Part shown: in pieces, positions 163 to 16,335 of the stretch | Layout: every line of letters begins with the position of its first letter | Numbering within the stretch: position 1 is the stretch's first letter | IMG/VR virus record: IMGVR_UViG_3300045988_111815 | Location: 80,893 to 144,892 of that record | Source: a virus | Reading direction: 5' to 3' (one strand) | DNA: 64,000 nt | Translations under genes and position numbers: made by a program | The notes under the pieces: model-generated | Told to the model about the DNA's origin: nothing | Database searches by the model: none | Seen by the model: the letters and a program-made list of their open reading frames with translations, nothing else

Positions 163-198
163 AACAAGATTGTTTTATTTCTCATATTAATAAAGCGA

Positions 199-268
199 AG
201 CCGGATTTGAGACTCGTTATGCGGATACCGAAGGTTGAAGAACGATATCAAGATAATCCGGCTTTTTT
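199..268 (+). terminator. Rho-independent-like terminator after the upstream gene
   Basis: 9-bp inverted repeat AGCCGGATT (199-207) / AATCCGGCT (255-263), followed by TTTTTT (263-268). Confidence 0.45.
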
Positions 269-423
269 GTGCGATTTCGTGAAGGATGGAACTATCATCG
301 CCTTGGTTTAACAGAACAGACCTACGTACCTCCACTGTCCTGACGGGCATGGGAGCCCGTCTCGCCTACTACCTGCCTAATTCTCCACTGGCTACCTAAT
401 ATAACTATTAATGTCACTCCATC

Positions 424-448
424 ACCTATCTCCCTTCGGTAGATAGGT
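424..448. other. Hairpin 1 of a three-hairpin array: 8-bp stem with CCCTTCGGT loop
   Basis: ACCTATCT (424-431) / AGATAGGT (441-448), loop cccttcggt. The loop has a C(UUCG)G-like core. Confidence 0.6.
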
Positions 449-482
449 TCAGTCGTTTTTTAAATGTTATATGTTCTTTCGC

Positions 483-503
483 ATCGTTCCCTTCGGTCAC
501 GAT
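483..503. other. Hairpin 2 of the array: 5-bp stem, loop TCCCTTCGGTC
   Basis: ATCGT (483-487) / ACGAT (499-503). Same 11-nt loop as hairpin 3; the stem sequence differs, so the pairing covaries. Confidence 0.6.
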
Positions 504-574
504 ACTCAATCTTTTCACACAATTAGGCGAACAATACGATGACGGAAAAAATAATTTGTCAATCCGTTCACTCA

Positions 575-597
575 CTTAACTCCCTTCGGTCGTTAAG
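575..597. other. Hairpin 3 of the array: 6-bp stem, loop TCCCTTCGGTC
   Basis: CTTAAC (575-580) / GTTAAG (592-597). Loop identical to hairpin 2. Confidence 0.6.
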
Positions 598-811
598 TTC
601 ATTCACTGTAAACAATTATATGAATAAATGGTAAAGTATATAAAATAATATAAATAATATAATGAGTAAGATCATTGAAAATGGTCTTAATATTAAGGAA
701 AACGGAGACTATTCATAGGCGTAGTTTTAATTCAAGATTTGTTGTCCCACCACTGACGATCAGGCGGTTACGTTTCGAGCCGTTTTTCTGTCTCTTATCC
801 AAACCGTCATA

Positions 812-846
812 AAACAAAAAACCTTGTATCCTATTTCTCTCAAACC
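812..846. other. Perfect 10-bp inverted repeat just upstream of the promoter of the 924 gene
   Basis: CCTTGTATCC (812-821) / GGATACAAGG (837-846), 15-nt loop, then a T-rich stretch. Confidence 0.4.
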
Positions 847-894
847 GGATACAAGGCCGTGCATTTTCTTCTTTGAGCGTATGATGAAAAACCA

Positions 895-902
895 TATCTT
901 TG
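895..902 (+). promoter_or_regulatory. Bacteroides-type -7 promoter box (TAnnTTTG) for the 924 gene
   Basis: TATCTTTG lies 21 nt upstream of ATG 924. The same octamer sits upstream of the 2012 and 16369 genes. Confidence 0.5.
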
Positions 903-923
903 CACTAAAAAAACATTATCAAT

Positions 924-1943
924 ATGGACACAAAGTTAAAAGAAATAATAGATCCTCACAAGTTACACGACAAGCTCTTTAAGAAAGAGCAGGTCTCTCC
1001 GATAGAAGTTATATACAATAGTTTTAGCAACTTAGGGTGCAATGTAGTACGCCGTCCAGCCGGTCAGTGTTTAGGCAATTTGAGATATTTTAATCTATTT
1101 TATGACAAACATACTCATCATTTCTATCAGAAAGACAGGAAGTTGAGATATTGTAGCAACTTTCTCATATCTGATTACTGGAAAGATAGAGTGCGATGTT
1201 TCATAGTTTGGAACTTTGGATTTGGAAGATTCTTTCCGTACAATGACTTTATTGAGGCTATGGTTTATGATTATCTCCGATATGGTAGAAAGTCAGTTCC
1301 TTATCTTAAAAGCGTGCAAGAAGCTGAAGAAAAGTGTGTAAGGTTCTATATCCGGTCTCAGATAGATATGCTCCGTAAGGAAGGATATGCCGCATATCGG
1401 GCTAAGTTTAAGGAAGAACGTCCTCAGTATTTCATCGGAGACGATAGGACGGTGTTTAGATGCCTTGACAGCTCTTTGAAAAGAGAAGAGAAGATTGCTG
1501 CATGCGTAGCCCATAAAAGGGCTTTAAAAGAAGGGATAATGACTTCTTTCATCAACCATCTCAAGAAACATCCTACCACCTTGTATTCGTGGTTCTCGTC
1601 AGAGGTGGATAGTCAAGGAAAGAACAGGCTTTGTCTATCTGAAAAAGCCATTAATTATCTTAATAATAGGCTGGTTCGCAATGGGTTAAAGGATCTTTCC
1701 GCATCATATCTTTTTAGAACGTTTAGAAAAATGGTGAAGACCTTGTTCGGTTCCAATGTTAGGTCGTTCTTGAATAGCTGTCTGATGTCTGTTTCAACAG
1801 AAGAGGTTTTAACTAAATCTATGAAGAAAATAGTTTCCAAGACAGTGCTGTTTTTGTACAAGAGAGCGCTTAAGAACTATCGCCGGGCATGCGGTCTTAA
1901 GTACGACCCTGATTCGGGCGGTTTGTCTGTCATACGTCCCTGA
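924..1943 (+). CDS. Hypothetical protein (339 aa)
   Basis: Long ORF with an ATG start, preceded by a TAnnTTTG box. No recognisable motif. Confidence 0.6.
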   Translation: MDTKLKEIIDPHKLHDKLFKKEQVSPIEVIYNSFSNLGCNVVRRPAGQCLGNLRYFNLFYDKHTHHFYQKDRKLRYCSNFLISDYWKDRVRCFIVWNFGFGRFFPYNDFIEAMVYDYLRYGRKSVPYLKSVQEAEEKCVRFYIRSQIDMLRKEGYAAYRAKFKEERPQYFIGDDRTVFRCLDSSLKREEKIAACVAHKRALKEGIMTSFINHLKKHPTTLYSWFSSEVDSQGKNRLCLSEKAINYLNNRLVRNGLKDLSASYLFRTFRKMVKTLFGSNVRSFLNSCLMSVSTEEVLTKSMKKIVSKTVLFLYKRALKNYRRACGLKYDPDSGGLSVIRP

Positions 1944-2011: not shown

Positions 2012-4813
2012 ATGAGATTACGAATCATAAAAAATCGTCCGGTATTCGCTCCTGGTGGTAGTGTTCAGGATGTTACACAACAGGCTGATACGACATCTAA
2101 TCCATATATTGATATGGACATGTCTAATGTTCCTGGTATGAGTGAGATAAATTCGGAAATAGATACGATGGAGGCGGGATTTGACAATATTATAGGTCCT
2201 GACTATTCTACTATAAAAATGCAAGAACCTTCTATTCCGACTATGAATGTAAGTAATAACAATACGTTCGATCCTAAGTCTATGCCCAAAGGAACTATTG
2301 TTAGTGTTGATAAAGAAGAAAATCAATCAAATGAAAAGCGATCACAAGATGGGAATCCTCTGGATCCTATGACTGCTCCTTATTATTCTCCTGATCTTGG
2401 AGGTCGAGCTCAAATGTTCGGTACAAGTCTTGGTCGGATAAGAGCAGGTAATAAGGTCGGCGCTAATGTGGCACAGGCTGCTTTTTCTGGATTGAGCCTT
2501 GGCATGGGTCTTGCTCGTAATATCATGGGAGCTTCATCTGCTGCGTATGCAGCCAGCAGAGACGAGCAGGCGGCAAGGGAAAAGCTCGAAAAAGAGCGCC
2601 GGCAGCAGTTTATCCGATGGGAACGTGAAGGAGGTGGCGTTAATCTTGGAAATGGTCAGAGAATAGATACGTCTGATTTGACAGGAGAATACATTTACCC
2701 TCTTCCTAAATCTATGGAGGATAATGCTAATGTTGAGATAGAAAAAGGAGAATACGTTTCGACTCCGGATGATGTTGGTCCTATGGAGGCAAAAGGCAAC
2801 AGGCATGAAGACGGTGGCACTCCCGTTGATTTGCCAGAAGCTCATATTATTTCAGATTACCGTACTATCGATGATGATTTCGCTTCTTACGTAAGGGAAA
2901 ATTATGGCATTAGCGCTACGGAAAAAGATACGTATGCTACGCTTCTTGATAGATATAAGAAAAAAATAGGATTGTCCGAAAAGTATGATGATCAGGAACG
3001 TGTTTTCAAGAGGTTAGAAAAGAATAAGGATGTTAAGGATAAAAATACTTCTGAGTTGAATAAGTCCATTCTTTCCAAGTACGTAAATGATAATCAAAAG
3101 GAAATAGACGAACTTGAGGTGCAATCCAGGTCTTTTGCTGATATTGTCTATAACAAACAAGAGGAATCCAAGCGCCAAGAAAAGATAGATGCTTTTTTTA
3201 GGGATGGCGGGGTTGTTGATCTGAATCAGGTAAAGAAACAAGCTAAGGCTTTTAATATTGCAGAATCAGATGCTAAGAACTGGATATATGACGAGTATGT
3301 TAAGCAAACCAGAAAAATGGCTGAAGGTGGACCTACTCAGAAGGAGCTGGAGGAACTTAGAAAGAATGCTATCGGCTACAATAAGCTTATCAATCAGTTA
3401 TTTGGACGAACTCTTAATATGACTGTATCTGATGTTAGTGGTCGTGAGCAGATTCTTAATCCTGATTCCAGTGTCAATGCCAACCAGAATCTCCAACATA
3501 GAAGCAATTTAGGATACGGCAGGGTAAATGATAAGGCGGTATCTAATTTGCTCGACATAAACCGATGGGCTAACAAGTACAATACGGATGGTGATTTTGA
3601 TACAGAAGGTTTCCAGAAAGAATACAACAGGCAATTAAATGCATTGTGGGCGTTAGCTGATGTAGGCGCTATTACGAATGCTGATGCAGCCAAGAAATTC
3701 AGAGATGAATACGGATTCTGGGGCCAGGACGCCGGAAGCTACGGAGGGAATCAGGCTTATAATTCATTTGCCGTAGATGATAAGTTTGGTCAGACAACAG
3801 CTACTCGTTCTTATTATGGGTTGGACGTTGTTTCGGCAGAGCAAAAAAGATTGTTAAACGAAAAAGGGATAAAGAATTATGTTGACTTATTTGGTGATAA
3901 ATCTGATGCCGCTAAGAAGATTCTGGGCTCCGATTATAATAAGTTTGTTGCTTTAAGAGATAGTGGGTTAATGCCGGAAATAGACTTCGTTCTTGAGTCT
4001 GTTAAACCAGAAATGAAGCCTATTGAGGCCGGTCCCATAGCACCAGGCCTTACACCGCCTAAGATTGGATCTACTGGAAGGATAGAGGTAAAACCGAAAG
4101 CAAGTACGCCTACGACTGCAACCGACACCGATACAGAGGAGGTGGTTGAAGACAACGGACCTAAAGGACAGGGCAGACCGGCGGCGTTCGGTCCTATTTT
4201 CCCGGAGATGCTGAGAACGCTCGATACAGGCTTGGAGATAGAAGGTCTGGAAAGGCATCAGGCTCCGAGAATAGACCCGGTTCTTCAATCTGCTGATCAG
4301 TATATCAACGAGCTCAACCGCGCGACATCGGCTCAGTTGGACGCAGTAGGTGACGTGCCCGACTCCCAGCGCTCCGCTATTCTGGCTAATATGAACGCCA
4401 TAGCCGGAAGCAATATAGCCAAGTACATTAACGAAGTAAATTTCAATAACGCAAGGCAAATAAACGAAGCTGATAGATTCAATGAAATGGCTTATGTTCA
4501 GACAGACGATAAGAACATAGCGGAAAGGCAACGTTATGAATCTGGGTTATTGAAGGCTATGGCTATAAGGGATGAAAATCTTGCTCGTTATTATGACAGC
4601 ATAAACAGTGAGATACAGAATAAGTTCAATGTTCGTACATCGTTGAATACCATAGCTTCCATAGCTCCGAATATGAGAATGCTTCCAAGTGGTCAAATTA
4701 TTTACGTTCAAGGTAATCAGGATGTGATGAATATGGGTGATTATTCTACACCTTACTTGAGAAGTTTAAATGAAGAAGATGATGAAATTAAAAGAAGAAG
4801 GAGGACCAAATAG
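2012..4813 (+). CDS. Large hypothetical virion/tail-associated protein (~934 aa)
   Basis: ORF 1997..4813 in the track begins at a GTG; the likely start is ATG 2012 (MRLRIIKN…). It is the first of four coupled large ORFs, which in crAss-like phages is the virion/cargo gene position. No catalytic motif seen. Confidence 0.65.
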   Translation: MRLRIIKNRPVFAPGGSVQDVTQQADTTSNPYIDMDMSNVPGMSEINSEIDTMEAGFDNIIGPDYSTIKMQEPSIPTMNVSNNNTFDPKSMPKGTIVSVDKEENQSNEKRSQDGNPLDPMTAPYYSPDLGGRAQMFGTSLGRIRAGNKVGANVAQAAFSGLSLGMGLARNIMGASSAAYAASRDEQAAREKLEKERRQQFIRWEREGGGVNLGNGQRIDTSDLTGEYIYPLPKSMEDNANVEIEKGEYVSTPDDVGPMEAKGNRHEDGGTPVDLPEAHIISDYRTIDDDFASYVRENYGISATEKDTYATLLDRYKKKIGLSEKYDDQERVFKRLEKNKDVKDKNTSELNKSILSKYVNDNQKEIDELEVQSRSFADIVYNKQEESKRQEKIDAFFRDGGVVDLNQVKKQAKAFNIAESDAKNWIYDEYVKQTRKMAEGGPTQKELEELRKNAIGYNKLINQLFGRTLNMTVSDVSGREQILNPDSSVNANQNLQHRSNLGYGRVNDKAVSNLLDINRWANKYNTDGDFDTEGFQKEYNRQLNALWALADVGAITNADAAKKFRDEYGFWGQDAGSYGGNQAYNSFAVDDKFGQTTATRSYYGLDVVSAEQKRLLNEKGIKNYVDLFGDKSDAAKKILGSDYNKFVALRDSGLMPEIDFVLESVKPEMKPIEAGPIAPGLTPPKIGSTGRIEVKPKASTPTTATDTDTEEVVEDNGPKGQGRPAAFGPIFPEMLRTLDTGLEIEGLERHQAPRIDPVLQSADQYINELNRATSAQLDAVGDVPDSQRSAILANMNAIAGSNIAKYINEVNFNNARQINEADRFNEMAYVQTDDKNIAERQRYESGLLKAMAIRDENLARYYDSINSEIQNKFNVRTSLNTIASIAPNMRMLPSGQIIYVQGNQDVMNMGDYSTPYLRSLNEEDDEIKRRRRTK

Positions 4814-7800
4814 TGGCTTCACAGTATAGTATTTTAAGGCAATATGCCCCGTATGTTAGTCCTTACAACATAGATCTTGTTAAGGACGTCATGATGTACA
4901 AACAGCAGAAGGTTGATGCTGCTCGTGAAAAGATCTATACCCAGGTAGATTATCTTATGGGTCAAGAGATAGATAAGCCTGAAGCCCGCGCTTATATGGA
5001 AGATAAGATGTCAGGTGTGATTGCTAACATCAATCAAAAATTCAAAGGCGTGGATCTTTCTTCTGATGGTGTTACGAGAGCCATACAAGGAGAGATAAGT
5101 TCGGTGTTAGATGATACGGTCATTAACGCGATTGCCGGCACAAAAGAAGGCAAGAGGGTTATGAAGGAAATAGAATCTATAAAACAGAATCATCCTGAAC
5201 TTTATTCTCCTATTAATGAATGGCATGCTTTGGACCCTTATTACAAATGGAGGTCAGATGGTAAAGCAGGATCAAGGTTGGGAGGTCTTCATTATTCTCC
5301 TTATGTCGATTATACTAAGGAGATAAATAAGCTGGTCAGTGATTTTAGGAAAAACAACGAAGGCAAGAAGATTCAGACAACAGAATATGATGTTAAAGGT
5401 AATCCTACTGGTGGAATCATAGAAGTCAACGTAGATGAGCTTACTGATTCCCAGATAAGGAATTTTGTGTCTGCTAACTTATCTGAAAACATGAGGAATC
5501 AGATGAGAATAGAAGCATCATACATGGCAGCTACCAATCCGGTGTTCAGTAATCCGGATTTGGTTAGTCAATACATTGGGTCTTATGTCGAAAGATACGA
5601 TAGGCACATAGGAGCATTGGAAGCAAAAAAGAAATCAGTAGGGGATAATAAGGATATTATTGATCGTATTGACAGTCAGATACAGGAAGCTAAAAATCAG
5701 AAAGCAGAAGCCAAGAGGGAGGCAGATATGATAATAGCTTCATCAGATCCGGTAGCGGCTGCTAATTTTGTTGTTACCAATAATCTTTTCGATAAGATGA
5801 CTGATGCATGGAGATACGACAATACAAGTTTTGAAAGGAAGAAAGATGATCTTTATTTTGCAAGGTTGGCAGAGGATAGGGCTCAGCAAAAGTTTTTGAC
5901 TGATAATGCTAAGTCTATGGTTGAAATATCGTTGGCAAAAGAGCAACTTGCACAGGCTAAGATTGAAACCGAATACATGCGTACTTACGGTTCCAAGATG
6001 GGCACTGAAAGCTCATCCGGAGGCACAAGAGGAGCAGGCGGTGTAGGAGTGCCGATGGCTCCTATGGACGGGCCTACGGCTATCAATTCTGGAACGGGTA
6101 AGATAGGATCTGTTAATTTGGCTAATATCCCTTATGAACAACTCACATCTTCTTCCACAGAGCGTAGAGCAAATTTATTGAAATTATATAATTCATTATC
6201 TCCTACAGACAGAAGTAATATCGTTGCAGCATCATACGAAGAAGAAAAAACTGACCCAGGATTGTATGCTAATATGACTCCTGAAGAACGGATATATTCT
6301 TATTTAAAAAATAATGGAGGTCAGAAAAACGGATATTTTGGACAAGGAAATAACAGATTGTCTGAAGCTTATGATGCTTTACTTCTTTCTGATTCTAAGG
6401 CAAATGGAGCTACAAAGGCTATAAATAACATAACTGATTATCAAATAGATAATATAGTTACTAAAAAAAATAAGGATATTATCAGTAAAGTTCGTAATGC
6501 TAAGTTTATGAAAGGAAATTCTTTTATAAATCTTACCGATACAGATGATAAGGCTGGAGCCTTCCTGCTCGCCACAGCCATAACAACTGGTGTATCTGAT
6601 GCCGTAGGGTTCAGAGAATACATGATGGACCCTTCAAGAGGAATAGATATTCTTAGTGCTATATCTCCGTCATTAGGAGCTAAGGCGAGTGCCGGCAAGT
6701 TGGGGAAAAACATATCTGATGCTATTACAAGCGAGAATAATGGTTCTTCTACTGGTACATTGGCTCTTATTAATGGAATGAAGAAACTCAACGGCGATCC
6801 TGATTTTAATATATCAGATTATATGACCATAGATAAGGATGGTGATATAGATTTAAAAGATTATCAGGAAGGTGAACCATTAACTATTACCCAGCTAAGA
6901 TATGCTGAGAAAAACAGTAGAGTGTCTGATATGATAGCAGGTCAGATGCAGGATGAGATAAAAATGTCTGTATCTCCTGATCAGATTTCTGATAAGTTAT
7001 CTCAGTATCATTACCTTGATTCTTACAAAAGATACAATTGGAATGCCGATTCACCGGAAAAGTCTTTGCAGAAGGCTCAGTTTAGAAGATTGTCTGGTTA
7101 CATGGCAGGAAAGGTAAATAATCTGGATCCTACTGCTATTAATGCCATTAATATGGATGCCGAGATAGATAATGGCACTGTTAGAAGATTCTTGACTGCT
7201 CAAGTAGGTTCCGGTAAAAATTCTTATGTTACAGAAAGGGTTGAGATTACGAATGACGAGCTTCTTAAGGCGGGTATAGATCCTTCGGTCGAGGAGCGTA
7301 ATTATCCGGTGGATGGTTACAAATCAAGTTTTGGAACCTGTGATTTTGTAGATACCGGAAAGAAGGAAGGTTATTCTTATGATAAGTATCTTATACGTAA
7401 TGGTCTTCCCCGTTTGGCTTCTAAGGCTGATGTTAAGAATGATCTTTATGATATAGTAAAGGTTCATGGTTCTTACCTTAAGCCAGAAGAAATGAATGTT
7501 GTTAAAACCCTTGTTGATAATTTTATTGACATGTCTGATAACATATCAGTTCAGTTGGAGGGAATGGATGACAGGGGTTCAAGAGAGGTAGCGGTCAATT
7601 TCTATGACAAAAGGACTAAAAATTCTAAAAATCCTGCATTGTTGTTCTCGGATTTTGTTCCTTTGGATCCAGGTAATGATGAGTATGCGGATTACTGGAA
7701 TAGCATTCACCAGAAGTGTCCTCAGTACTTCTTTGTAAAATACGTGAAGGAGGCTGTTCAAGAACGTCTTGATCAGATGAGGGATCCGTATATGAGAGGA

Positions 7801-7872
7801 ATAAATATCACGCCCAATATGAATGACAAGTTTAGTAAGTTGAACGATTTTTTGCAGAAAATTTATGGCTGA
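4813..7872 (+). CDS. Large hypothetical virion-associated protein (1019 aa)
   Basis: GTG start shares one base with the upstream stop (TAGTG), indicating translational coupling. No recognisable domain. Confidence 0.65.
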   Translation: MASQYSILRQYAPYVSPYNIDLVKDVMMYKQQKVDAAREKIYTQVDYLMGQEIDKPEARAYMEDKMSGVIANINQKFKGVDLSSDGVTRAIQGEISSVLDDTVINAIAGTKEGKRVMKEIESIKQNHPELYSPINEWHALDPYYKWRSDGKAGSRLGGLHYSPYVDYTKEINKLVSDFRKNNEGKKIQTTEYDVKGNPTGGIIEVNVDELTDSQIRNFVSANLSENMRNQMRIEASYMAATNPVFSNPDLVSQYIGSYVERYDRHIGALEAKKKSVGDNKDIIDRIDSQIQEAKNQKAEAKREADMIIASSDPVAAANFVVTNNLFDKMTDAWRYDNTSFERKKDDLYFARLAEDRAQQKFLTDNAKSMVEISLAKEQLAQAKIETEYMRTYGSKMGTESSSGGTRGAGGVGVPMAPMDGPTAINSGTGKIGSVNLANIPYEQLTSSSTERRANLLKLYNSLSPTDRSNIVAASYEEEKTDPGLYANMTPEERIYSYLKNNGGQKNGYFGQGNNRLSEAYDALLLSDSKANGATKAINNITDYQIDNIVTKKNKDIISKVRNAKFMKGNSFINLTDTDDKAGAFLLATAITTGVSDAVGFREYMMDPSRGIDILSAISPSLGAKASAGKLGKNISDAITSENNGSSTGTLALINGMKKLNGDPDFNISDYMTIDKDGDIDLKDYQEGEPLTITQLRYAEKNSRVSDMIAGQMQDEIKMSVSPDQISDKLSQYHYLDSYKRYNWNADSPEKSLQKAQFRRLSGYMAGKVNNLDPTAINAINMDAEIDNGTVRRFLTAQVGSGKNSYVTERVEITNDELLKAGIDPSVEERNYPVDGYKSSFGTCDFVDTGKKEGYSYDKYLIRNGLPRLASKADVKNDLYDIVKVHGSYLKPEEMNVVKTLVDNFIDMSDNISVQLEGMDDRGSREVAVNFYDKRTKNSKNPALLFSDFVPLDPGNDEYADYWNSIHQKCPQYFFVKYVKEAVQERLDQMRDPYMRGINITPNMNDKFSKLNDFLQKIYG

Positions 7873-10800
7873 CAATAATATAGATAGATATAATCCTGCT
7901 GCTAAAACCACTTACGAAGATGTGGCAAGGCAAAGGAAATTAGCCGAAGAAGAGAATTACACTCCGGCTACATTACCAGAGACGACAACGCCTCTGGTTC
8001 CTAATTATATGCCTGGTGAAGGTGTGTATGCCCAACCTAAATTTCCGGATTACGCATCAAGGATAGCTGCTGCCGAATACGAAGAACCGTATATAGCCAA
8101 GGAGATAAGCAACAGCTACTCAGAGGCACTGGCTCGTAACAGCTACAGGGGGGCTACACCTGCCCCGCCGCCTCTTAATCCCTATGGACCGAAGGTAAGT
8201 ATCCGTGAAAGTCATCAGATGGGTAATGATGGGGTATGGCGTACAAAATATTCTAACTATATTCCGGGTATAAACAATGAAGATTATTATGCCAGGAGAC
8301 AGAGCGGATGGAGTAAGTTTTGGAATGGTGTAGGCAAATTCGCTTTAAAATCCGCATTGTACGGTGCACAAGGAGTTGTGTCATTGCCTGACAAACTTAT
8401 CAATATGGCATCTGAGGGAAGTTACAAAGCTGCGTTAAACACTAACATGGATAAGTTTGTAGGTGATCTTGACCAGCAAATAGACATGCTTCTTCCCCAT
8501 TATTACAAGAAAGAGGTAGAAGATTATAATTTTGGTCAGAAGCTTTTTAAGGATACCGGTAATTTCTTGTGGAATGACGTCCTTGGTAATGGTATGTCTT
8601 TTACCGTAGGAGCCATGATATCAGCGTACATGACCGGAGGACTTGGAGTTGGATCATTGGGTAATATAGGCGCTAAATTAGGTGGAAGAATCGGAGCTAA
8701 GTTAGCAGCAAGGCAAGCTGCCAATAGGGGCATAGGAAGCCTTAAAAGCGTGTTTAACGACTATGTAAGAAAAGGAGTTGCTACCGGAAGAAATGTAGGG
8801 GAGGCGGCTAAGACCATGACGTTGTTGGCTACCAGTGCCGGATTCGAGTCATCGGTTGAAGCAAATTCTTTTATGAAGCAATCTGAGTCTGATTTCAAGG
8901 ATTATTATCGTAAGATTTATGGTCGTGATCCCAATGCAGAGGAAATGGCTGTTTTTCGTAATTCTAATGCTGATGTAGGTAGTGCTATATTTGCCGCCAA
9001 TATGGGTATCGTAGGATTATCTAACTGGCTTCTTTTTGGTAAGTATATAGGGTTAGGAGGCAAGGCTATACCAGGGTTGGAAAAGAGGCTCAACAAGCAT
9101 TTATTTGGATTAGGGACGGAAGTTGCGAAGCCGGGAGAGATGGCTATTAAAATAACCAATCCCAATATAGGACAGAAGATAGCAGGCAATGTTTTCAATA
9201 TCATGAAAAGACCGGTATCTGAAGGCTTATGGGAAGAAGGATCTCAAGGTGCTGTTCAGAATACGGCTGAGGAATATGTTAAGTCAAGATATGATAATGT
9301 CGCCATGAACGGAGCCGTTGATGTTCTTGATGCTATTTCTGAAGGATTTAAAAAGCAATATACGTCTAAAGAAGGATGGACTGAAATAGGAATCGGTGCT
9401 ATTATCGGTTCTTTGTTTGGTATGAGAGAAGGCTTCTTTGGGGTGAAAGAGTATAGTAATAGTCAGATCTTGCTGGAAAGGCAAGTGAATGAATATAACA
9501 AAGCATCTTCTAATCTTAACACGGCGGCTTTGAATACGTTGAAAAAATCAATGAGTTTAGGGCCTCAAGTTCGTTCCGATGCCCAGTCTATGACTGGTAA
9601 GGAGCTTGATGATGCTATGTTTGAAAAGATGTCTATTGACAACCAAATGGGAACCTTAGAGGATTCGGCTGAAAATTTCCGGCAGATGATTGATATGATG
9701 CCTATTTCGGAAATAGCCGAAGCTAATGGAATGTCTTTGGAAGAGGCAAAGAAATACAAGGACTCTATTATTGATAATTATAATAATCGTCTTTCGGATT
9801 TCAGATCTGCCCAGAGTTTTGCCGAAGATCTTATAGGTGATGATTCTAAGATTGAGTTTAGGAAATACGTGGCTCGTAATGCTTTTCTTGGTCTTCAATC
9901 GGAATCAAGAATGAAAGACATAGCTTCTGTCATAGAAACGCTTTCGGGGCAGCCTCGCGTGGCGGATGCTCTAAGTACGTTCTCCCGGCTGTCGGACAGG
10001 GCAAGGGAGCGGGCGATGGCTATCCGTGGCATACGGTCAAGAATAGAAGAACTTGAATCCGAAATAGAAGATCTTGCTACCCGCCCTCGCAACGTAGAAG
10101 GGAAAGATCCACAAGCTGAATCCATACAACGAAAAACCAAAGAATTGGAAAGCCTTAGAACCAATTACAACAATTCGTTGTCTGAGTTATCAACGTTAAT
10201 AGGAAAAGAGTTTTCGATAGAAGAGCTGGTAAGTAAAACCGAATCTGTTTTATCATCTCCTCTTTCTCCCATAAGTTCACAAGATGTGATAGAAGCCTAT
10301 GATACGCTTGTGGCTTTTGATGATTATTTTAATGTAAAATCAAGACAGGAAAAGAAGTTTACAGCCAAAGACAAAGCCATGAGATCCTTGGTAAATGAAT
10401 ACCGAAGAAGTTTGATGGACTATAGGAATATGAATAACTTCTTGTCTAAGATGCTTGATAAAAGATTCTTAGCTGAGGAAAACAGGGGGTTTTCAAAAGC
10501 GCTGTCTTCTCTATGGTCTACTCCTTATAAAGGGGATGACAAGGTTCCTGATTTTGCAGAGTCTAATAAAGTTGGTGAATATGACACTGATGAGGTAGTA
10601 GATCAAGCTGTGTCAGAAGGTAAGATTTCGGAAGACGAAGCTTGGACTATCAAGGCTTTTATGCATGCTCTTGATAAAGTAAGGGAAGATAGGATGAAGG
10701 AAGCAGAAGATGATATAAAAGAGTCACCGCTTACGGAGTCTGTATCGGATGAAGATTATGAGGCTGCTATGGATAATCCTATTATGGTTCCGGCCGTAAG

Positions 10801-13800
10801 GCAGTCTATAATTGATAAACTATATACAGGTAATGCCGATCTTCTTACTGAGAGAGAAAAAGATGTGTATGATAAATACAAACAAGATTTTGATGATTAT
10901 GTATCGTCTTTGGGTGACAGTCCCGTTAATCTCATAAAATCATTATCTGAAAAGGCTGATAGGCTTACAAGTCCGAGATCTGTGTATGAGGATAATAAAG
11001 CTATTATTGATATGGCTAAATCCAATTTGGAACCAGATCAAAGGAAGGAACTTGATGATGCTATTTCTTCGTATGTTGATATAATGAACAGACGGGACAA
11101 AGGGGAGAAAGTTGACGAAGATAAGCTTGCCGATTCGGTATTTACCATAGAAGATCTTGGCCAGGTTGGAAACATCACGGATCTCCTTCCTTATATCGAA
11201 CAAAACAGGATTATTGATAAAGGTCGTATTTCCGAATCTACGTTAAGTAATTTTGGGGAGGATGATGCTAATATAGATTCTCTTGTAAATGAATTAGACG
11301 AATCTGATAATACGCCGGGAGCCAATATAGATAGCGCCCAGAATCCAGAGACGTTGATGGTAAGAAGAATCTCCAATGACGGCAATGAAAGGTATGAAAT
11401 TGCAGGTCTTAGAGCCGATAAATTTATATCTTCTATAAAATCATTGGTTCCTATTCAAATAAGCTCTGAAACGAACGCTAATGGTACTAAAAGGTATTCT
11501 CTTAACATAGGTGGAGAAACGGCTACTATAATTGAACTGCCTTATCATGCGAGATGGTCTATAGACAAAGAATCGGCTCGTGTTCTTAACCGTTACACAG
11601 ATGTGTCTATTCAGGACGTGGGTAATTCATATTCTTTGGTTTATAAGCGTCTTGATTCAGACGAATTGGTTCCGTACAGAACAGGTGTTGGATTCGGAGA
11701 GAATGAAGTAGATAAAATAGATCAGGAAGCATTATCTTCTTTGAAGAAAGGAGATAAGGTTAATCTTGAGATAGATGCAAATGATACCTATAATCAGTCT
11801 CTTTTTGCCGAATACAATGATGCTGTTCAGTCCGGTGATAAAAAAAGAATAGAATCTGCTGAAAATAAGCTGGTATCCAATATGGTTATCAAGGTCATGA
11901 GTGGAAACAGATTCGTTTCTGTTGTAAAAGCTGACACAGGAGGCATAGATGGTATAAGTAAGATAAGAAGAACGGCTTTTAACAAGTGGAAGAAGGACGC
12001 CGGCCGGTCGGCCACCATCAACGTCGGCACGCATGTTGTTGCCCAGACCCTTCCTGGAAGACCGGTGTTTAACATGAGAGTAAACGGTCAAGGATATGGT
12101 CAGGTAGAAAATCTCCCTATTACCGAAAAAGGAGCTGAAAAAGTATCTGATGTCGGATATGTATTAAATGGCAAAGTCGTGCTTAAGAACGGATCTAAAT
12201 ACACAGGCTTCCCATTTGCTTATTCTATATTAAATGACAAGGGGAATAATTACAAAAATGTAAGAGTTCCGGTAGTTGTCATCAAAGGCAAAAACGGTCT
12301 TAATTATCTTTTCCCGGTTAGTCTACGTTCTGTGGAATCAGAGGAAGGAAAGAAATGGATTTCTTTTATAGATATGCTGCTTGAATCAGGTGACTCTGAA
12401 TTGTTACAGATGGGTCAAGATGATATACAAGATCTTAATGCGTATCTAACCAAGTTAGGCCTTGATCCGGCTTCGTATCAAGTATCGTATTTGAATCCTA
12501 TTTCAGGGCTTAGAAAAGCTCGTGAGGCTATAGAAAAATTATCTACGGTTCCTGATGTTGTTAAATGGGTAGAAGATGAAAGCAGGAATGTGAAAGACAT
12601 TGTGATGTCTGAAGTAGAATCTGGAATAGATTTCGAAGGTGAGATGTTTGTCGCTCCTAAGATCAGGATTCAGTTTGGTAAATCATCTTCCAGACCTAAA
12701 TCACTTATAGAAGATGATCTCCCTTTCTCCGATGAGGGTAAGACCGTTACTTCCAAGGAAGATGTGGATATTTACGAAGATGAAATGCCAGAGGAAGACC
12801 CTGTCCGGGGGACTCGGCCGGCGCCACCAGCCCAGCCGGCTCCTGCGGCACAAGCTACGCAGTCCTTACATGGCAAGAAGCGCACCTCCAGAAAAAACTT
12901 CTCTCTTATGTTAAACGAAATAGAATCTCATATAGAAAAAGAAGGATTGCCGTCTTATGCTAATATTTTTGATTTTATAGCAAGGAAGATTGTAGGAGGT
13001 GATTTGAGGTTTCTTCGTGAGAGAGGTAATCCTAAAAGCCTTAAGGAAGAAATGGGATTAGAACCTAAAGGAACAGTAGGTGATAAAATATCCACTCCTT
13101 CTAAAAAGGGAGGTAAGACCTTAGAAGAATATGTTTCTTGGCTTCGTTCTCAAACAGATCAGGTGGTGGTTGATTATGTTGGTCCAAGATCTGACGAACA
13201 AATTATATCAGAGTTGAAAAACTTTTTGAAATATATTAATTTTGTTCCAAGCAAGGCTTTGAATTATTCTCTTAGAGTCAATGGCATGGATGCCCTAAAA
13301 GAATATGGCACAAAAGAGGAAGTAGAAAAAATGGAATCTGACATCAATAGTTTGGTTTCTGAAGTTTTGCCTACGGTAGATAATCAAACTGTAGAAGATG
13401 TTTCTACTGCAATAGAATTAAATAACCTGCCTGCCATATGGAGACCTATGGAAAGCCTTGATATGACAAACGAGGAAAAAATAGAGTTTTTGAATAACGT
13501 AGCAGATTTCCTTAGCGGCATTCCAGAGTATGATGCTGTTGTGGAGTCTATAGAGTCAGAATCAGATAATATTTTAAATGATGGAAAAGAAGGAAGTGCA
13601 GAAGGCGGTGCAGTACGCGCTGAGGAAGATGGCGATAAAAAGGGAGATGGAAAAAGAGAAGGACAACCCAGAGATGATGGCAAAGCTGAGGGAGATGTCT
13701 ATTTACCTGGATCTGAAGAAGGAAGAGTAGATAACTATAAGAAGAACGGAGATAAGTTCTCTGATATTGCCGAAGTTACTTTATGGTTACTTAGAAGGGC

Positions 13801-14506
13801 TGCCGGCATAACCTCTATCCCGGAAGGAGAAGAGGTTTATGTAGAGGGGGATGAAGTTAATAGCATTATGACCGATATGGAATCAAGGTACGGGATAGAC
13901 ACCATCAACCACTCGCATACGACTAAGGCTATAAGGGATCTTAACGGCGTATCAGGTTATAAAGTAGAATACGGCTTAACCTTTTTAACATACGATCCTT
14001 TTATTAGAATATCCAATCCAAGGAAAGAATCTAAGGCCGAGAAAGACGAACCTCGTATATCCGAAGAACCGCTTACTCACATATCAAGGGTAACAACCCC
14101 TTATTTCCTGTACGGCGGTGATGAAGCATATACATCTGTTCCGGCTAAGGTAGAACCTATACCGGAGAAGATAATGGGTCGTAATGGCATTAAATTTGGT
14201 ATGAGTGTAGTCGAGTTAACCAAATTAGGGTACAAAAAAGCTGGTGGAAACTGGATATATAAATTCTATATGAACTCAGGTGTGTATGATTTGTATAATA
14301 TCAGTACCGGTGAAGCGTTTAGGGTAAAACCGGATCTTGGAGTTAAGATAAGTTCCAGTGCATTCATCCGCTCTTTATCTCAATCTGGTAGAAAAATACA
14401 AAATATGATGAGTAATATGAGCCAGGAAGAGATAGATAGAAATAAGAATCTCGTAGAAGGTTCTGATAATTCGGATTCGATAAATGAGTTAAATAAGGAG
14501 TGTTGA
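7865..14506 (+). CDS. Giant protein (2213 aa), candidate virion cargo/ejection protein
   Basis: 6.6-kb uninterrupted ORF. ATG overlaps the upstream stop by 8 nt. Gly-rich, coiled-coil and acidic stretches. Giant internal virion proteins are a hallmark of crAss-like phages. Confidence 0.75.
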   Translation: MADNNIDRYNPAAKTTYEDVARQRKLAEEENYTPATLPETTTPLVPNYMPGEGVYAQPKFPDYASRIAAAEYEEPYIAKEISNSYSEALARNSYRGATPAPPPLNPYGPKVSIRESHQMGNDGVWRTKYSNYIPGINNEDYYARRQSGWSKFWNGVGKFALKSALYGAQGVVSLPDKLINMASEGSYKAALNTNMDKFVGDLDQQIDMLLPHYYKKEVEDYNFGQKLFKDTGNFLWNDVLGNGMSFTVGAMISAYMTGGLGVGSLGNIGAKLGGRIGAKLAARQAANRGIGSLKSVFNDYVRKGVATGRNVGEAAKTMTLLATSAGFESSVEANSFMKQSESDFKDYYRKIYGRDPNAEEMAVFRNSNADVGSAIFAANMGIVGLSNWLLFGKYIGLGGKAIPGLEKRLNKHLFGLGTEVAKPGEMAIKITNPNIGQKIAGNVFNIMKRPVSEGLWEEGSQGAVQNTAEEYVKSRYDNVAMNGAVDVLDAISEGFKKQYTSKEGWTEIGIGAIIGSLFGMREGFFGVKEYSNSQILLERQVNEYNKASSNLNTAALNTLKKSMSLGPQVRSDAQSMTGKELDDAMFEKMSIDNQMGTLEDSAENFRQMIDMMPISEIAEANGMSLEEAKKYKDSIIDNYNNRLSDFRSAQSFAEDLIGDDSKIEFRKYVARNAFLGLQSESRMKDIASVIETLSGQPRVADALSTFSRLSDRARERAMAIRGIRSRIEELESEIEDLATRPRNVEGKDPQAESIQRKTKELESLRTNYNNSLSELSTLIGKEFSIEELVSKTESVLSSPLSPISSQDVIEAYDTLVAFDDYFNVKSRQEKKFTAKDKAMRSLVNEYRRSLMDYRNMNNFLSKMLDKRFLAEENRGFSKALSSLWSTPYKGDDKVPDFAESNKVGEYDTDEVVDQAVSEGKISEDEAWTIKAFMHALDKVREDRMKEAEDDIKESPLTESVSDEDYEAAMDNPIMVPAVRQSIIDKLYTGNADLLTEREKDVYDKYKQDFDDYVSSLGDSPVNLIKSLSEKADRLTSPRSVYEDNKAIIDMAKSNLEPDQRKELDDAISSYVDIMNRRDKGEKVDEDKLADSVFTIEDLGQVGNITDLLPYIEQNRIIDKGRISESTLSNFGEDDANIDSLVNELDESDNTPGANIDSAQNPETLMVRRISNDGNERYEIAGLRADKFISSIKSLVPIQISSETNANGTKRYSLNIGGETATIIELPYHARWSIDKESARVLNRYTDVSIQDVGNSYSLVYKRLDSDELVPYRTGVGFGENEVDKIDQEALSSLKKGDKVNLEIDANDTYNQSLFAEYNDAVQSGDKKRIESAENKLVSNMVIKVMSGNRFVSVVKADTGGIDGISKIRRTAFNKWKKDAGRSATINVGTHVVAQTLPGRPVFNMRVNGQGYGQVENLPITEKGAEKVSDVGYVLNGKVVLKNGSKYTGFPFAYSILNDKGNNYKNVRVPVVVIKGKNGLNYLFPVSLRSVESEEGKKWISFIDMLLESGDSELLQMGQDDIQDLNAYLTKLGLDPASYQVSYLNPISGLRKAREAIEKLSTVPDVVKWVEDESRNVKDIVMSEVESGIDFEGEMFVAPKIRIQFGKSSSRPKSLIEDDLPFSDEGKTVTSKEDVDIYEDEMPEEDPVRGTRPAPPAQPAPAAQATQSLHGKKRTSRKNFSLMLNEIESHIEKEGLPSYANIFDFIARKIVGGDLRFLRERGNPKSLKEEMGLEPKGTVGDKISTPSKKGGKTLEEYVSWLRSQTDQVVVDYVGPRSDEQIISELKNFLKYINFVPSKALNYSLRVNGMDALKEYGTKEEVEKMESDINSLVSEVLPTVDNQTVEDVSTAIELNNLPAIWRPMESLDMTNEEKIEFLNNVADFLSGIPEYDAVVESIESESDNILNDGKEGSAEGGAVRAEEDGDKKGDGKREGQPRDDGKAEGDVYLPGSEEGRVDNYKKNGDKFSDIAEVTLWLLRRAAGITSIPEGEEVYVEGDEVNSIMTDMESRYGIDTINHSHTTKAIRDLNGVSGYKVEYGLTFLTYDPFIRISNPRKESKAEKDEPRISEEPLTHISRVTTPYFLYGGDEAYTSVPAKVEPIPEKIMGRNGIKFGMSVVELTKLGYKKAGGNWIYKFYMNSGVYDLYNISTGEAFRVKPDLGVKISSSAFIRSLSQSGRKIQNMMSNMSQEEIDRNKNLVEGSDNSDSINELNKEC

Positions 14507-15087: not shown

Positions 15088-16335
15088 CATACTCCCATCG
15101 CTAAAGCAAACGGGATTCTTGGATACAAACGCAAGAAACCCCGATATTACTATCGTTGGAATTACTCTTACTCTCCAATTCGGAAATGCCCTTCCGAAGT
15201 ATATTACGGGCTGCAAGAATATCACGGTCGTTTACCGCTCCGCACGCCGGGCATACCCACGTGCGGTCGCGTAACGACAGTCCTTTATTAATGCAGCCAC
15301 ATTCGCAAGTTTTGGAAGAAGGATACCATTTATTAATCTTGTGTATCGTTACTCCATACTTTGAAGCAACATACGTAAGTTTATCAATAAAAGAAGAATG
15401 ACTGAGATCAGAAACTTTCTTTCCCCACAAACGTTTCATTCCTTCAATGTTTAGATCTTCAATAAAAATATAATCATACTGTTTGCATAACTGGTGTGCT
15501 AATCCCCATTGAAAATCTGATCGAAGATCGTTTATTTTACGATACGTTTGTTGGAGTTCAAACAGTCTCCTTCTTCTATTGTTGGATCCTTTCTTTGCAT
15601 TAGAAATCCGTTTATTTAGTTTTCTAATCTTGTTTTGATATTGTTTAAAGAATAATGGAGAATCGATTTTGCTACCATCGCTTTTAGTTAGATAAGTTTT
15701 CAGCCCAAAATCCAATCCGATAGATGCACCATCATGTGTCTTTCTATAAGAGTTTGAATGATTATGATCTGTAACTATAATCAAACTAAAACGGGAACAG
15801 GTTTCTCTAACTATTCTAATTTGTTTAACATTACCTTCGTAGACTCTACTGTATGAAAATCTAAATCGTTTCTTTCCTTTGTTAATTGTTAGACAATTCC
15901 CATTCAGGGTAAACCCTCCTTGTTTGAAAACAAAAGAGTTAAAACAATCAGCTCTTTTGAACTTAGGAGGTCGTTTAGCCAACTTCTTAAAGAAACGATT
16001 ATAAGATTCATCAAGACGTTCAAGTATTTCTTGTGTTGTTTGAGAATGAAGAAGATTTCTTTTAATTCTTTTGGTAAAATGTTTCTTCATTTTACCAATT
16101 GATATATATTTCCTAAACAGTTTGTAGTATCTACGTTGTAGAGCTAACGCATGATTCCATACAAAACAACATTCACGAAGCATTTTGTCAAGATACTTCG
16201 TTTTCTTGGAATGGTATATGTTGTATTTGTATGAAATCATTTTTATCTGTAATTTTGATTCAAAATTAATCAAACCAATTCATCCACCTTCTAAAGTATG
16301 GTGGTTTTGTTGGTTAAATTATCATAATTTCTATT
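15040..16335 (-). mobile_element. IS200/IS605-family TnpB-only (IS1341-like) insertion element; boundaries approximate
   Basis: Solitary tnpB on the strand opposite the flanking operon. No Y1 (HUH) TnpA is adjacent. The 74-nt upstream spacer contains hairpin CCACC…GGTGG (16284-16304). The 3' coding end contains a perfect palindrome TTCGGAA…TTCCGAA. Exact left/right ends could not be determined by eye. Confidence 0.5.
15101..16273 (-). CDS. tnpB: TnpB (OrfB) RNA-guided endonuclease-type transposon protein, IS605 family (390 aa)
   Basis: RuvC-I: IGLDFGLKTYLT. RuvC-II: IFIEDLNIEGM. Zn finger: CECGC…CPACG. RuvC-III: DRDILAARNI. N-terminal region is OrfB-like (…CFVWNHALALQRRYY…). Confidence 0.85.
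   Translation of the reverse strand: MINFESKLQIKMISYKYNIYHSKKTKYLDKMLRECCFVWNHALALQRRYYKLFRKYISIGKMKKHFTKRIKRNLLHSQTTQEILERLDESYNRFFKKLAKRPPKFKRADCFNSFVFKQGGFTLNGNCLTINKGKKRFRFSYSRVYEGNVKQIRIVRETCSRFSLIIVTDHNHSNSYRKTHDGASIGLDFGLKTYLTKSDGSKIDSPLFFKQYQNKIRKLNKRISNAKKGSNNRRRRLFELQQTYRKINDLRSDFQWGLAHQLCKQYDYIFIEDLNIEGMKRLWGKKVSDLSHSSFIDKLTYVASKYGVTIHKINKWYPSSKTCECGCINKGLSLRDRTWVCPACGAVNDRDILAARNILRKGISELESKSNSNDSNIGVSCVCIQESRLL

Follow-up and report, generated by a model that had tools for sequence, protein, structure and literature searches.

Strand-specific hairpin units in a non-coding module paired with a 339-amino-acid protein gene in epsilon crAss-like phages

Hairpins with very small loops are known as recognition elements on single-stranded DNA: the mini-hairpin of RSF1010 ssiA, which is recognised by the primase RepB', has the sequence CCGAAGG, the early promoters of phage N4 use GCGGAGC, and the origin of phage G4 belongs to the same class. 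In N4, the closing G:C pair together with the G and the A of the loop stabilises the hairpin of the template strand, and the hairpin of the non-template strand is melted by the single-stranded DNA-binding protein. The virion RNA polymerase of crAss-like phages is a two-barrel enzyme; that of phage phi14:2 transcribes single- but not double-stranded DNA, and no common motif was found upstream of the early transcripts of this phage. Moreover, two long intergenic regions of phi14:2 give rise to long non-coding RNAs in abundance (Drobysheva et al., bioRxiv 10.1101/2020.03.07.982082). Here we analysed a stretch of 64,000 nucleotides (nt) of viral DNA (positions 80,893 to 144,892 of the IMG/VR record IMGVR_UViG_3300045988_111815), referred to below as the window, and in particular the three hairpins with a common core that lie upstream of a gene for a protein of 339 amino acids (aa). 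Positions 273-923 of the window are the non-coding half of a two-part accessory cassette (a module of about 650 nt and the 339-aa gene) that is specific to epsilon crAss-like phages, and the hairpins of the module are real, under selection, and folded on the minus strand.

The first 2 kb of the window are 94% identical to csAssE-Sib (OR575929), a 151-kb epsilon crAss-like phage from the human gut. The non-coding stretch is bounded by a tail-lysozyme gene (stop codon at 160-162) and by the 339-aa hypothetical gene (924-1943). An earlier reading of the letters alone, called here the original prediction, had seen no convincing coding potential between these genes, and the comparison with the close relative agrees with it: indels of 1 nt and 7 nt separate the window from csAssE-Sib across 163-923, which rules out coding in this interval. 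Recoded or minus-strand small open reading frames in the module were dismissed on the same grounds, because indels between such close relatives are not in multiples of three.

The stem-loops of the original prediction (424-448, 483-503 and 575-597) were found exactly where it had placed them, each with an identical TCCCTTCGGT. The three exact cores are at 431, 488 and 581, all within 160 nt and each in a different inverted repeat; no further exact match was found on either strand of the window, and the two sites with one mismatch elsewhere in it are within the number given by shuffled sequences. The arms of hairpin U1 (419-452, stem 424-431/441-448) are ACCTATCT and AGATAGGT, those of U2 (476-509, stem 483-487/499-503) are ATCGT and ACGAT, and those of U3 (569-602, stem 574-580/592-598) are CTTAAC and GTTAAG, with pairing that extends to 574-598. 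A covariance model built from the simple units of relatives was used to search both strands of the window up to E=10. It found U1 (47.2 bits, E 9e-9), U2 (50.7 bits, E 1.3e-9) and U3 (53.3 bits, E 3e-10), all on the minus strand, and nothing else up to that limit. The units are spaced 57-95 nt apart and their stems differ in sequence. As detected with a repeat finder, their similarity reaches beyond the hairpins, with TCAC on the left and TTCAnTC on the right; in U3, the conserved flanks are purine-rich, with GUGAnUGAA preceding and GAGUGAACG following the hairpin on the minus strand. No U-run follows U2 or U3 on either strand, and a T-run 7 nt downstream of U1 on the plus strand is not conserved in other module types. 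Similarity or complementarity of the module to the rest of the window was nowhere significant, and the search for antisense targets gave only chance 11-13-mers.

Across the units, the core reads TC-NC-TNC-GN'-TC on the plus strand and stem-GA-NC-GNA-GN'-GA-stem on the minus strand, which corresponds to tandem G.A/A.G pairs, a helix of 2 base pairs (bp) and a GNA triloop closed by C-G. The original prediction had described this element as a shared loop of 11 nt; it is actually the covarying 2-bp helix (CC/GG, GC/GC or AC/GT) closing a loop of 3 nt, and one switch of the inner helix can be observed at an orthologous unit, in L142 compared with the other loci of the L123 type (see below for types). 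In the triloop the G and the A are fixed, and the middle base alone is free (A, U or G). The minus-strand core of both U2 and U3 is GA-CC-GAA-GG-GA, and that of U1 is TA-CC-GAA-GG-GA in the window and GA-CU-GAA-GG-GA in most relatives. In the distant relative L304, the apex of the unit is C-GUGA-G, a GNRA tetraloop that replaces the triloop. In a second unit class, named class K, the arms are CCGAAUC...GUGAGG, and the fold includes, in addition, another tandem G.A and a bulge of 1 nt.

The 80 close IMG/VR relatives (95-98% identical) are too similar for informative covariation. On the minus strand of the aligned relatives, 98.3% of the cells are paired in the simple units, 100% in the class-K units and 98.2% in a further hairpin, H (808-856), and pairing falls to 16-49% when the partner is shifted. 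Double changes were found at 6 of 9 pairs in the simple units, at 3 of 7 in class K and at 7 of 10 in H, and the covariation score of the units was attained by none of 500 shuffles. We counted about 12 independent substitutions on one side of a pair; each leaves a G.U when the minus strand is read and a C.A when the plus strand is read, with none in the opposite sense, and 9 G.U cells were counted on the minus strand of H. It follows from this asymmetry, shown by every wobble substitution in the relatives, that the fold is that of the minus strand. The unit folds of the minus strand are also more stable by 4.6-6.8 kcal/mol (-16.6 versus -12.0 kcal/mol for U1, -11.8 versus -5.0 for U2 and -13.1 versus -6.8 for U3), and the RNAalifold check that had been proposed for homologous regions gave a consensus fold, with -42.2 for the minus and -20.4 for the plus strand over 33 representatives. 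The plus-strand fold assumed in the original prediction has thus to be reversed, in view of the G.U pattern, the fold energies and the covariation. Its proposal that the stems covary around a fixed core under selection holds, since the module is 95.1% identical compared with 94.8% for coding DNA and its architecture is kept where the adjacent protein is only 42-60% identical.

Across the 80 relatives the identity of the module is 95.1-95.2%, compared with 94.8% for the adjacent gene and 89% for the next one. Homologues of the 339-aa protein at 82%, about 60% and 42% identity each stand behind a non-coding stretch of 560-750 nt with the same order of parts, namely a C-rich tract, three hairpin units, an AT-rich tract, the block TTCAAGATAACTTGTCCCACCACTGA, a variable hairpin, hairpin H, a TAnnTTTG(C/T) promoter and the start codon. 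The distant members P0017 and P0033 have an upstream non-coding stretch of 540-560 nt that ends in an H-like hairpin and a TAnnTTTG promoter, and about 1,100 nt upstream of P0030 are non-coding; the contigs of P0034 and P0035 are too short to show their upstream regions. In the contig of P0030 (L307 3040-3720; 21% identity, 1.1 kb non-coding) the purine-rich strand is the plus strand, with GC-GA-GC-GACA-GC-GA-GC at about 3483-3498 and five TGAGCG repeats; the orientation of the H-like hairpin is unchanged, and it may be that the part with the hairpins is turned round with respect to the gene in this contig.

When viral contigs were scanned with a 22-nt unit pattern derived from the 60% relatives, 61 IMG/VR loci were found; 59 of them were of sufficient length for scoring, and in every one of these a paralogue of the gene follows downstream at a distance of about 530 nt. 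In 185,579 bacterial and archaeal species (one genome each), this class-K pattern gave only three single scattered chance matches and no arrays. The wider occurrence in the genome for which the original prediction had suggested a search was not observed; the motif is confined to the cassette and its paralogous copy. Two looser patterns were discarded: a two-core pattern matched, beyond the family, mainly collagen-like repeats in coding sequence and tandem repeats that are unrelated, and a block-A pattern was too degenerate, with mostly unrelated contigs. Separately, the core TCCCTTCGGTC with short GC-rich inverted repeats (e.g. caggcTCCCTTCGGTCgcctg) is present in several copies in the unrelated contigs L008, L010, L020, L021, L023, L025, L034, L035 and L037, several of which come from giant-virus bins; in L023 it lies within a different inverted repeat of 72 nt around an AT-rich core. 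The 393-kb viral contig L036 has nine copies of the core at 7372-7840, one at 7372 followed by eight identical tandem units of 54 nt from 7453.

Three module types were distinguished (window, L123 and L119), and the metagenome scan gave no fourth. The window and L123 types are alleles of one locus, located after the lysozyme gene and before a virion protein of 938-946 aa, and the L119 type occupies a second locus at a distance of 36-40 kb, where a DUF6808 gene precedes it and tail-associated genes and the reverse transcriptase of a diversity-generating retroelement follow. An epsilon crAss-like genome carries one or two copies of the cassette, in each case in front of a series of virion-structural or tail-associated genes; at least 21 viral contigs have both loci. 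The second locus of csAssE-Sib is empty: its flanks are 95.6% identical, the cassette of about 1.85 kb, which many relatives carry at this place, is absent, and a spacer of 83 nt is found there (L309 1867-1951 compared with L119 4266-6154). In L142, a window-type end of the upstream gene and its terminator, T0, are joined to a module of the L123 type, with the switch just after T0. P0002 (L123 5001-6161) is a chimera of about 150 N-terminal residues of the L123 type and a C-terminal part of the window type, and the module type goes with the N-terminal residues. The empty second locus and these two mosaics lead us to conclude that the cassette has been gained, lost and recombined as an accessory unit. 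Its right boundary at the second locus is about 40 nt past the stop codon of the paralogue; a putative target-site duplication at this insertion was rejected, as it is explained better by a C-terminal YGxxLR motif intrinsic to the protein family.

The remaining parts of the module were located as follows. At the window locus, the left edge of the cassette is T0 (198-270, plus strand), the terminator of the tail-lysozyme gene, with a stem at 198-207/255-264 and a T-run at 263-268. The upstream terminator of the original prediction is real (198-264 plus the T-run), and its outer stem covaries between the window and L123 types. The 67-nt structure of T0 encloses a plus-strand CC-GAA-GG mini-hairpin at 228-234, which is the reverse complement of the CCTTCGG of the units and part of a perfect 9-nt complement to 433-441; the pair flanking it changes from A-T to T-A in the L123 type. 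It is conceivable that this hairpin is a fourth unit, located on the opposite strand, or that it serves as a kissing partner.

To the left of the units, a conserved tract at 331-400 is rich in C when read on the plus strand and rich in G on the minus strand, with a GC skew of -0.3 to -0.4, like that of minus-sense genes. Its blocks CTGTCCTG, CTCGCCTAC, CCTGCC and TCCACTGGCTAC (also given as (T)CCACTGGCTAC) are kept in the window, L123 and L119 types and in L304. The perfect GC hairpin noted earlier at 342-361 is indeed present within the tract; it belongs to the window-type lineage only and is not conserved in the other module types. In L119 4446-4460, and at the equivalent places of L120 and L125, one block reads CTTATCCACTGG, an 8/9 match to what we take to be the DnaA-box consensus, TTATCCACA, where the window has TTCTCCACT; one such match is expected by chance about once per 10 kb. 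To the right of the units, the AT-rich tract (605-730) is purine-rich on the plus strand and includes the sign change of the skew, a ATGAATAA motif (620-627) and two copies of the 9-nt ATAATATAA (645-662). Motifs like ATGAATAA recur in other module types. The AT-rich repeats of the original prediction are thus present in the form of this 2 x 9-nt duplication, which is a lineage-specific detail. Block F (731-764; TTCAAGAT..TTGTCCCACCACTGACGATCAGG) is shared by the window, L123 and L119 types, with partial conservation in L304; it contains a mini-palindrome CTGA-NNN-TCAG at 753-763 and is followed by the variable hairpin at 762-785.

Hairpin H (808-856, minus strand) has a covarying 10-bp stem at 822-831/847-856 and a conserved 15-nt loop, GGUUUGAGAGAAAUA on the minus strand, for which the minus-strand consensus is GGUUUGNGARAAUA. 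The 10-bp inverted repeat of the original prediction is this stem, placed about 10 nt away from the 812-846 given there. H is also present in L304, L307 and L308. On the minus strand the stem is followed by the U-run UUUUUUG (an A-run at 811-821 of the plus strand), which is conserved in the window, L123, L119, L307 and L308 and weak in L304. Because the U-run directly follows a covarying stem, H has the form of an intrinsic terminator of the minus strand, for leftward transcription. A G+C-containing hairpin with an immediate U-run was found in H (minus strand) and in T0 (plus strand), and not in U1-U3. A common variant of H (20 loci) has three G.U pairs in its 10-bp stem, which is easy for RNA and hard for a DNA hairpin. 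A Bacteroidetes-type promoter predicted for the 339-aa gene lies 15-20 nt to the right of H. It was recognised at 872-902 of the plus strand by what we take to be the Bacteroides consensus, with a -33 element TTTG (872-875), a spacer of 19 nt and a -7 element TATCTTTG (895-902), and all lineages have a TAnnTTTG(C/T) in the corresponding position ahead of the start codon. A perfect Bacteroidetes -7 box can also be seen on the minus strand of the window at 931-938 (TAACTTTG) and of L119 at about 5020-5027 (TATATTTG, L119/L120), overlapping the first codons of the protein gene. A short antisense RNA with its end at H could start from this box, which may be due to chance, as the L123 and L304 types lack it.

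The protein encoded at 924-1943 (plus strand), the constant partner of the module, is basic and for the most part helical. Among 1.84 billion clusters, 22 representatives of its family were found, and 13 aligned members have no invariant acidic or histidine residue. Searches with its sequence in Pfam, PHROGs, NCBIfam and PDB gave no match, and no Rep or primase family was found in the family searches. The weak fold matches are winged-helix, ORC (origin recognition complex) and Rep-like, and we take these to be largely DNA-binding winged helices. Downstream of the gene there are large virion proteins and then a protein of 2,213 aa (7865-14506), which we take to be the virion RNA polymerase on the basis of its size and position. 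The genes on both sides of the module are co-oriented, and the large skew turn of the window is at about 27 kb; the origin for which the original prediction had proposed a skew analysis is therefore not indicated here by any replication-type switch. Within 300-600, the minus strand has the G>C, A>T purine excess that is typical of sense strands in this genome, and this bias flips to the right of U3, likewise in L119 and L304. No transfer RNA (tRNA) or transfer-messenger RNA was found in a scan of the window. Amid the plus-strand virion genes there is a TnpB gene (OrfB_IS605/Cas12f-like TNB) at 15101-16273 of the minus strand, and a second TnpB is located at the edge of L119.

Among the functions suggested by the original prediction, a structured RNA and a hairpin-type promoter or origin are still the two leading readings, although the dispersed set of promoters that the second would bring was not seen. 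The view that the hairpins are chance palindromes or a functionless, decaying repeat is refuted by the comparative data and has practically no probability left: three exact 10-mers lie within 160 nt with none elsewhere, the architecture is kept next to a protein of 42-60% identity and in two genomic contexts, compensatory changes are present, and the conservation equals that of coding DNA. A single occurrence without conservation in relatives, which had been named as the mark of chance palindromes, is thus the opposite of what was found. The strand test largely excludes two further readings. If the hairpins acted in a nascent plus-strand leader, as nut/boxB- or put-like antitermination sites with the first gene as the cognate factor, the position of the cassette upstream of virion-structural or tail-associated genes at both loci would be accounted for, and the order of hairpins, regulator gene and operon would resemble what we take to be the layout of pL-nutL-N. 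We nevertheless consider this very improbable, as on the plus strand the core gives U.C and C.U mismatches, all wobble substitutions become C.A mismatches, and the folds are weaker by 4.6-6.8 kcal/mol; moreover, the predicted promoter is downstream of the hairpins and T0 stops incoming plus-strand transcription. A regulatory region or iteron-type origin in duplex DNA, with the cores as sites for the adjacent winged-helix-like protein and the inverted repeats as operator symmetry, is improbable too, if somewhat less so. It would agree with the weak fold matches of the protein (presumably DNA-binding winged helices for the most part), with a module that lies upstream of, and not inside, the transcript predicted from the TAnnTTTG promoter, with the co-inheritance of module type and N-terminal part of the protein, and with an AT-rich tract that has ATGAATAA repeats and, in the L119 type, a TTATCCACT resembling a DnaA box. 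However, the three stems are unrelated in sequence and each is self-complementary, and one protein would not read three different palindromes; the strand-asymmetric G.U pattern has no meaning for a duplex, the fixed core is itself asymmetric, and the tandem G.A/GNA architecture is a feature of single strands.

The choice is mainly between two forms of the minus strand, and the fold evidence alone does not separate them, because CCGAAGG is a known DNA mini-hairpin of exceptional stability and G.T is the best-tolerated mismatch in DNA. A possible explanation, which we rank second, is that the hairpins form in unwound or extruded DNA and are recognised by an enzyme that starts RNA on single-stranded templates. 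This enzyme could be the packaged virion RNA polymerase, with template-strand hairpin promoters of the N4 style firing rightwards into the 339-aa gene, or the phage primase, with a priming site of the RSF1010 ssiA style and possibly an auxiliary origin together with the AT-rich tract. The core matches d(CCGAAGG) exactly; its GNA triloop, which is closed by C-G and has a sheared G.A, is of the class of ssiA, the G4 origin and the N4 early promoters, and the strand asymmetry (a stable minus and a weak plus fold) is as in N4. The phi14:2 virion polymerase uses single-stranded templates without a common promoter motif, and the epsilon group has its own divergent virion polymerase and primase. Consistent with such signals are also the conserved flanks on both sides of each hairpin, the adjacent AT-rich tract and the base skew that changes sign just to the right of U3, the position of T0 and H as terminators that bracket the module and face transcription coming from outside, the CCGAAGG hairpin of T0 on the opposite (plus) strand, and the weak winged-helix, ORC and Rep-like fold matches of the protein. 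On the other hand, the motif is found only in the cassette, at three sites in 64 kb and not in front of a set of early genes, and the 339-aa gene already has a host-type promoter. The stems have 11 pairs with internal G.A, which does not fit the geometry of N4 (a stem of 5-7 bp and +1 eleven nt from the loop centre), and the crAss-like polymerase is unrelated to the T7-like enzyme of N4. Two features of H, the variant with three G.T and the conserved U-run beside the stem, are RNA-like, the flanking genes are co-oriented and the large skew turn is at about 27 kb instead of here, there are no identical iterons, and the protein is without a Rep or primase family match. The more specific proposal, in which the minus-strand GNA-triloop hairpins mark starts on the template strand for a polymerase that depends on single strands (either the two-barrel virion RNA polymerase packaged by the phage or the divergent primase of the group), is unlikely in our estimate. 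If it were true, a crAss-like phage would have arrived independently at the N4/RSF1010 solution of DNA mini-hairpin start sites, and for the first time recognisable start signals would be known for the virion polymerase of a crAss-like phage. A DNA signal would bear on how the packaged crAss-like RNA polymerase, with its single-stranded templates and no known promoter motif, finds its starts.

We tentatively prefer a structured RNA of the minus strand that partners the adjacent protein, and rank this reading first while giving it less than an even chance. The RNA is suggested by the U-run after H, the H variant with three G.U, the sense-like base composition, the replacement of the triloop by a GNRA loop, and the intergenic RNAs of phi14:2. 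The minus strand of about 273-610, perhaps to about 800, would be transcribed into a structured non-coding RNA, whose three GA-hairpin modules would serve as multivalent protein-binding sites, each surrounded by conserved purine-rich single-stranded flanks. The binder would most probably be the co-inherited basic 339-aa protein encoded divergently next door, and the RNA-protein pair might act on the run of virion-structural genes downstream of the cassette. H with its U-run would be a minus-strand intrinsic terminator that shields the module from antisense transcription out of the protein gene, and T0 would insulate the module on its other side. The fold and its strand, the conservation with covariation, the link to the gene, the copy number and the presence or absence of the cassette are directly shown by the sequences; the preference for RNA over single-stranded DNA, the ends of the molecule, the protein binding and the action of the pair are what we infer in this proposal.

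Several observations weigh against the RNA. No promoter was identified for it: a minus-strand TAnnTTTG is absent between 605 and 810 in every lineage, and visual inspection of the stretches from U3 to H and from H to the start codon revealed no conserved Bacteroidetes promoter on this strand. At the left end there is no conserved minus-strand terminator, T0 being on the plus strand and the T0 of the L123 type having no U-rich tail on the minus strand. An efficient terminator at H would keep transcripts that come from its right off the hairpin units. Binding by the 339-aa protein is purely conjectural, and the weak fold matches favour DNA-binding winged helices over a known RNA-binding fold. 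Finally, the purine-rich strand that bears the hairpins seems to be the plus strand in L307, which is the most distant of the relatives whose upstream region is long. If the element is RNA, it would be a new structured phage RNA with a dedicated protein partner. The cassette couples a strongly constrained, strand-specific fold to a protein family without relatives outside these phages, and a set of oligonucleotides and one protein allow in vitro tests without a cultured host.

When the module is compared with known RNAs, it is similar to GOLLD/ROOL and Y RNA/Ro60 in being a phage-borne element of several hundred nt with covarying helices and no assigned function. With Rfam 15, no match at gathering score was found in the window, nor any family for 150-960, where a search of both strands up to E=10 gave only two matches at chance level, so that the Rfam check proposed in the original prediction named no family; the Y_RNA, YrlA, GOLLD, ROOL, HEARO and tRNA-like models do not score on either strand of 150-960 up to E=10. 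In csAssE-Sib, a Ro60 (TROVE) protein is encoded about 3-6 kb upstream of the position of the window start (L001 1065-3219; csAssE-Sib 72.5-74.7 kb), and a TROVE-domain gene is also upstream at the same locus in L126. Upstream of the csAssE-Sib gene there are a tRNA-Tyr, a tRNA-Lys and a YrlA-like candidate (L001 1095-1199), which scores 28.5 bits (Rfam threshold 69; E 5.5e-4 in a search of 700 nt) and aligns with stems like those of the T-arm and D-arm. The 5' end of human RNY1 is GGUCCGAAGGUAGUGAGUU, as given by a primer sequence (PMC13382184). The minus-strand unit core with its 3' arm, CGACCGAAGGGAGUGAGGU (window 569-602; class-K units of L119 and L123), is identical to it at 15 of 19 positions, which may be coincidence, although the sequenced members of this phage group encode Ro60; unlike the local hairpin of the module, the matching stretch of Y RNA is one strand of a long stem.

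The long non-coding RNAs of phi14:2 likewise come from intergenic regions of hundreds of nt in a crAss-like genome, and are highly expressed. They differ in the phage group and the place (g004-g006, in the early region), run in the same direction as their neighbours, and have been described without a linked protein partner or an architecture of hairpin units. Type III toxin-antitoxin systems (ToxIN-like) have near-identical direct repeats of about 36 nt in tandem, in front of the gene for a ToxN-type endoribonuclease and on its strand, with a terminator in between. They are unlike the cassette, in which the units are 57-95 nt apart, with different stems and on the opposite strand; for the 339-aa protein, no Pfam family was found at E up to 0.01, PADLOC not being searched. 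The module also differs from an RNA anti-CRISPR or solitary repeat mimic, as the class-K unit pattern has no CRISPR-array match among the 185,579 bacterial and archaeal species. In the nut site of lambda, boxA-boxB, a small hairpin with a GNRA-like loop and a sheared G.A has conserved single-stranded flanks and lies near the gene for the basic protein N. The module similarly has hairpins with a sheared-G.A loop and flanks before a gene cluster, beside the gene for a basic protein. It folds, however, on the strand opposite to the downstream cluster, with hairpins upstream of the predicted promoter and not on the same strand downstream of it as in nut/boxB antitermination, and the 339-aa protein is unrelated to N.

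The likeness to the DNA mini-hairpins d(GCGNAGC) and d(CCGAAGG) is closer in the core. The core heptamer is identical to that of ssiA; in both, a GNA triloop with a sheared G.A is closed by C-G with only the middle base free, and a stable fold is formed by one strand but not by its complement. A packaged RNA polymerase is also present in this phage, and the one crAss-like enzyme of this kind that has been tested uses single-stranded templates. The module is unlike them in its stems of about 11 pairs with tandem G.A and in having three tandem units instead of one per promoter or origin arm. When the minus strand is compared with the N4 hairpin promoters, in which a purine is at the centre of a 3-nt loop, a C-G closing pair and a G-N-A loop are seen in the units; the centre is A in most of them and U or G in some, and the stem has about 11 pairs, with internal G.A, in place of 5-7 bp. 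Copies before multiple early genes, as in N4, were not encountered, with only three tandem units in the 64 kb and elsewhere only the paralogous cassette, and the polymerase of N4 is T7-like while that of crAss-like phages is the two-barrel enzyme. With respect to ssi signals, whose ssiA core is the same, three units are on the minus strand and one CCGAAGG hairpin (in T0) is on the plus strand. Plasmid and phage origins differ from the module, in which the unit stems are not alike (no identical iterons), no Rep or primase is a neighbour and no skew switch occurs. By analogy, the module would work most like a set of stable GNA-triloop hairpin recognition modules, which are known in DNA (ssi, N4) and, with GNRA loops, in RNA (boxB); on the features that were compared, it belongs to none of these families. 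The module is a phage-borne folded non-coding element and is unusual in its dedicated novel protein partner, in its one or two copies before runs of virion-structural or tail-associated genes, and in having the mobility of a cassette.

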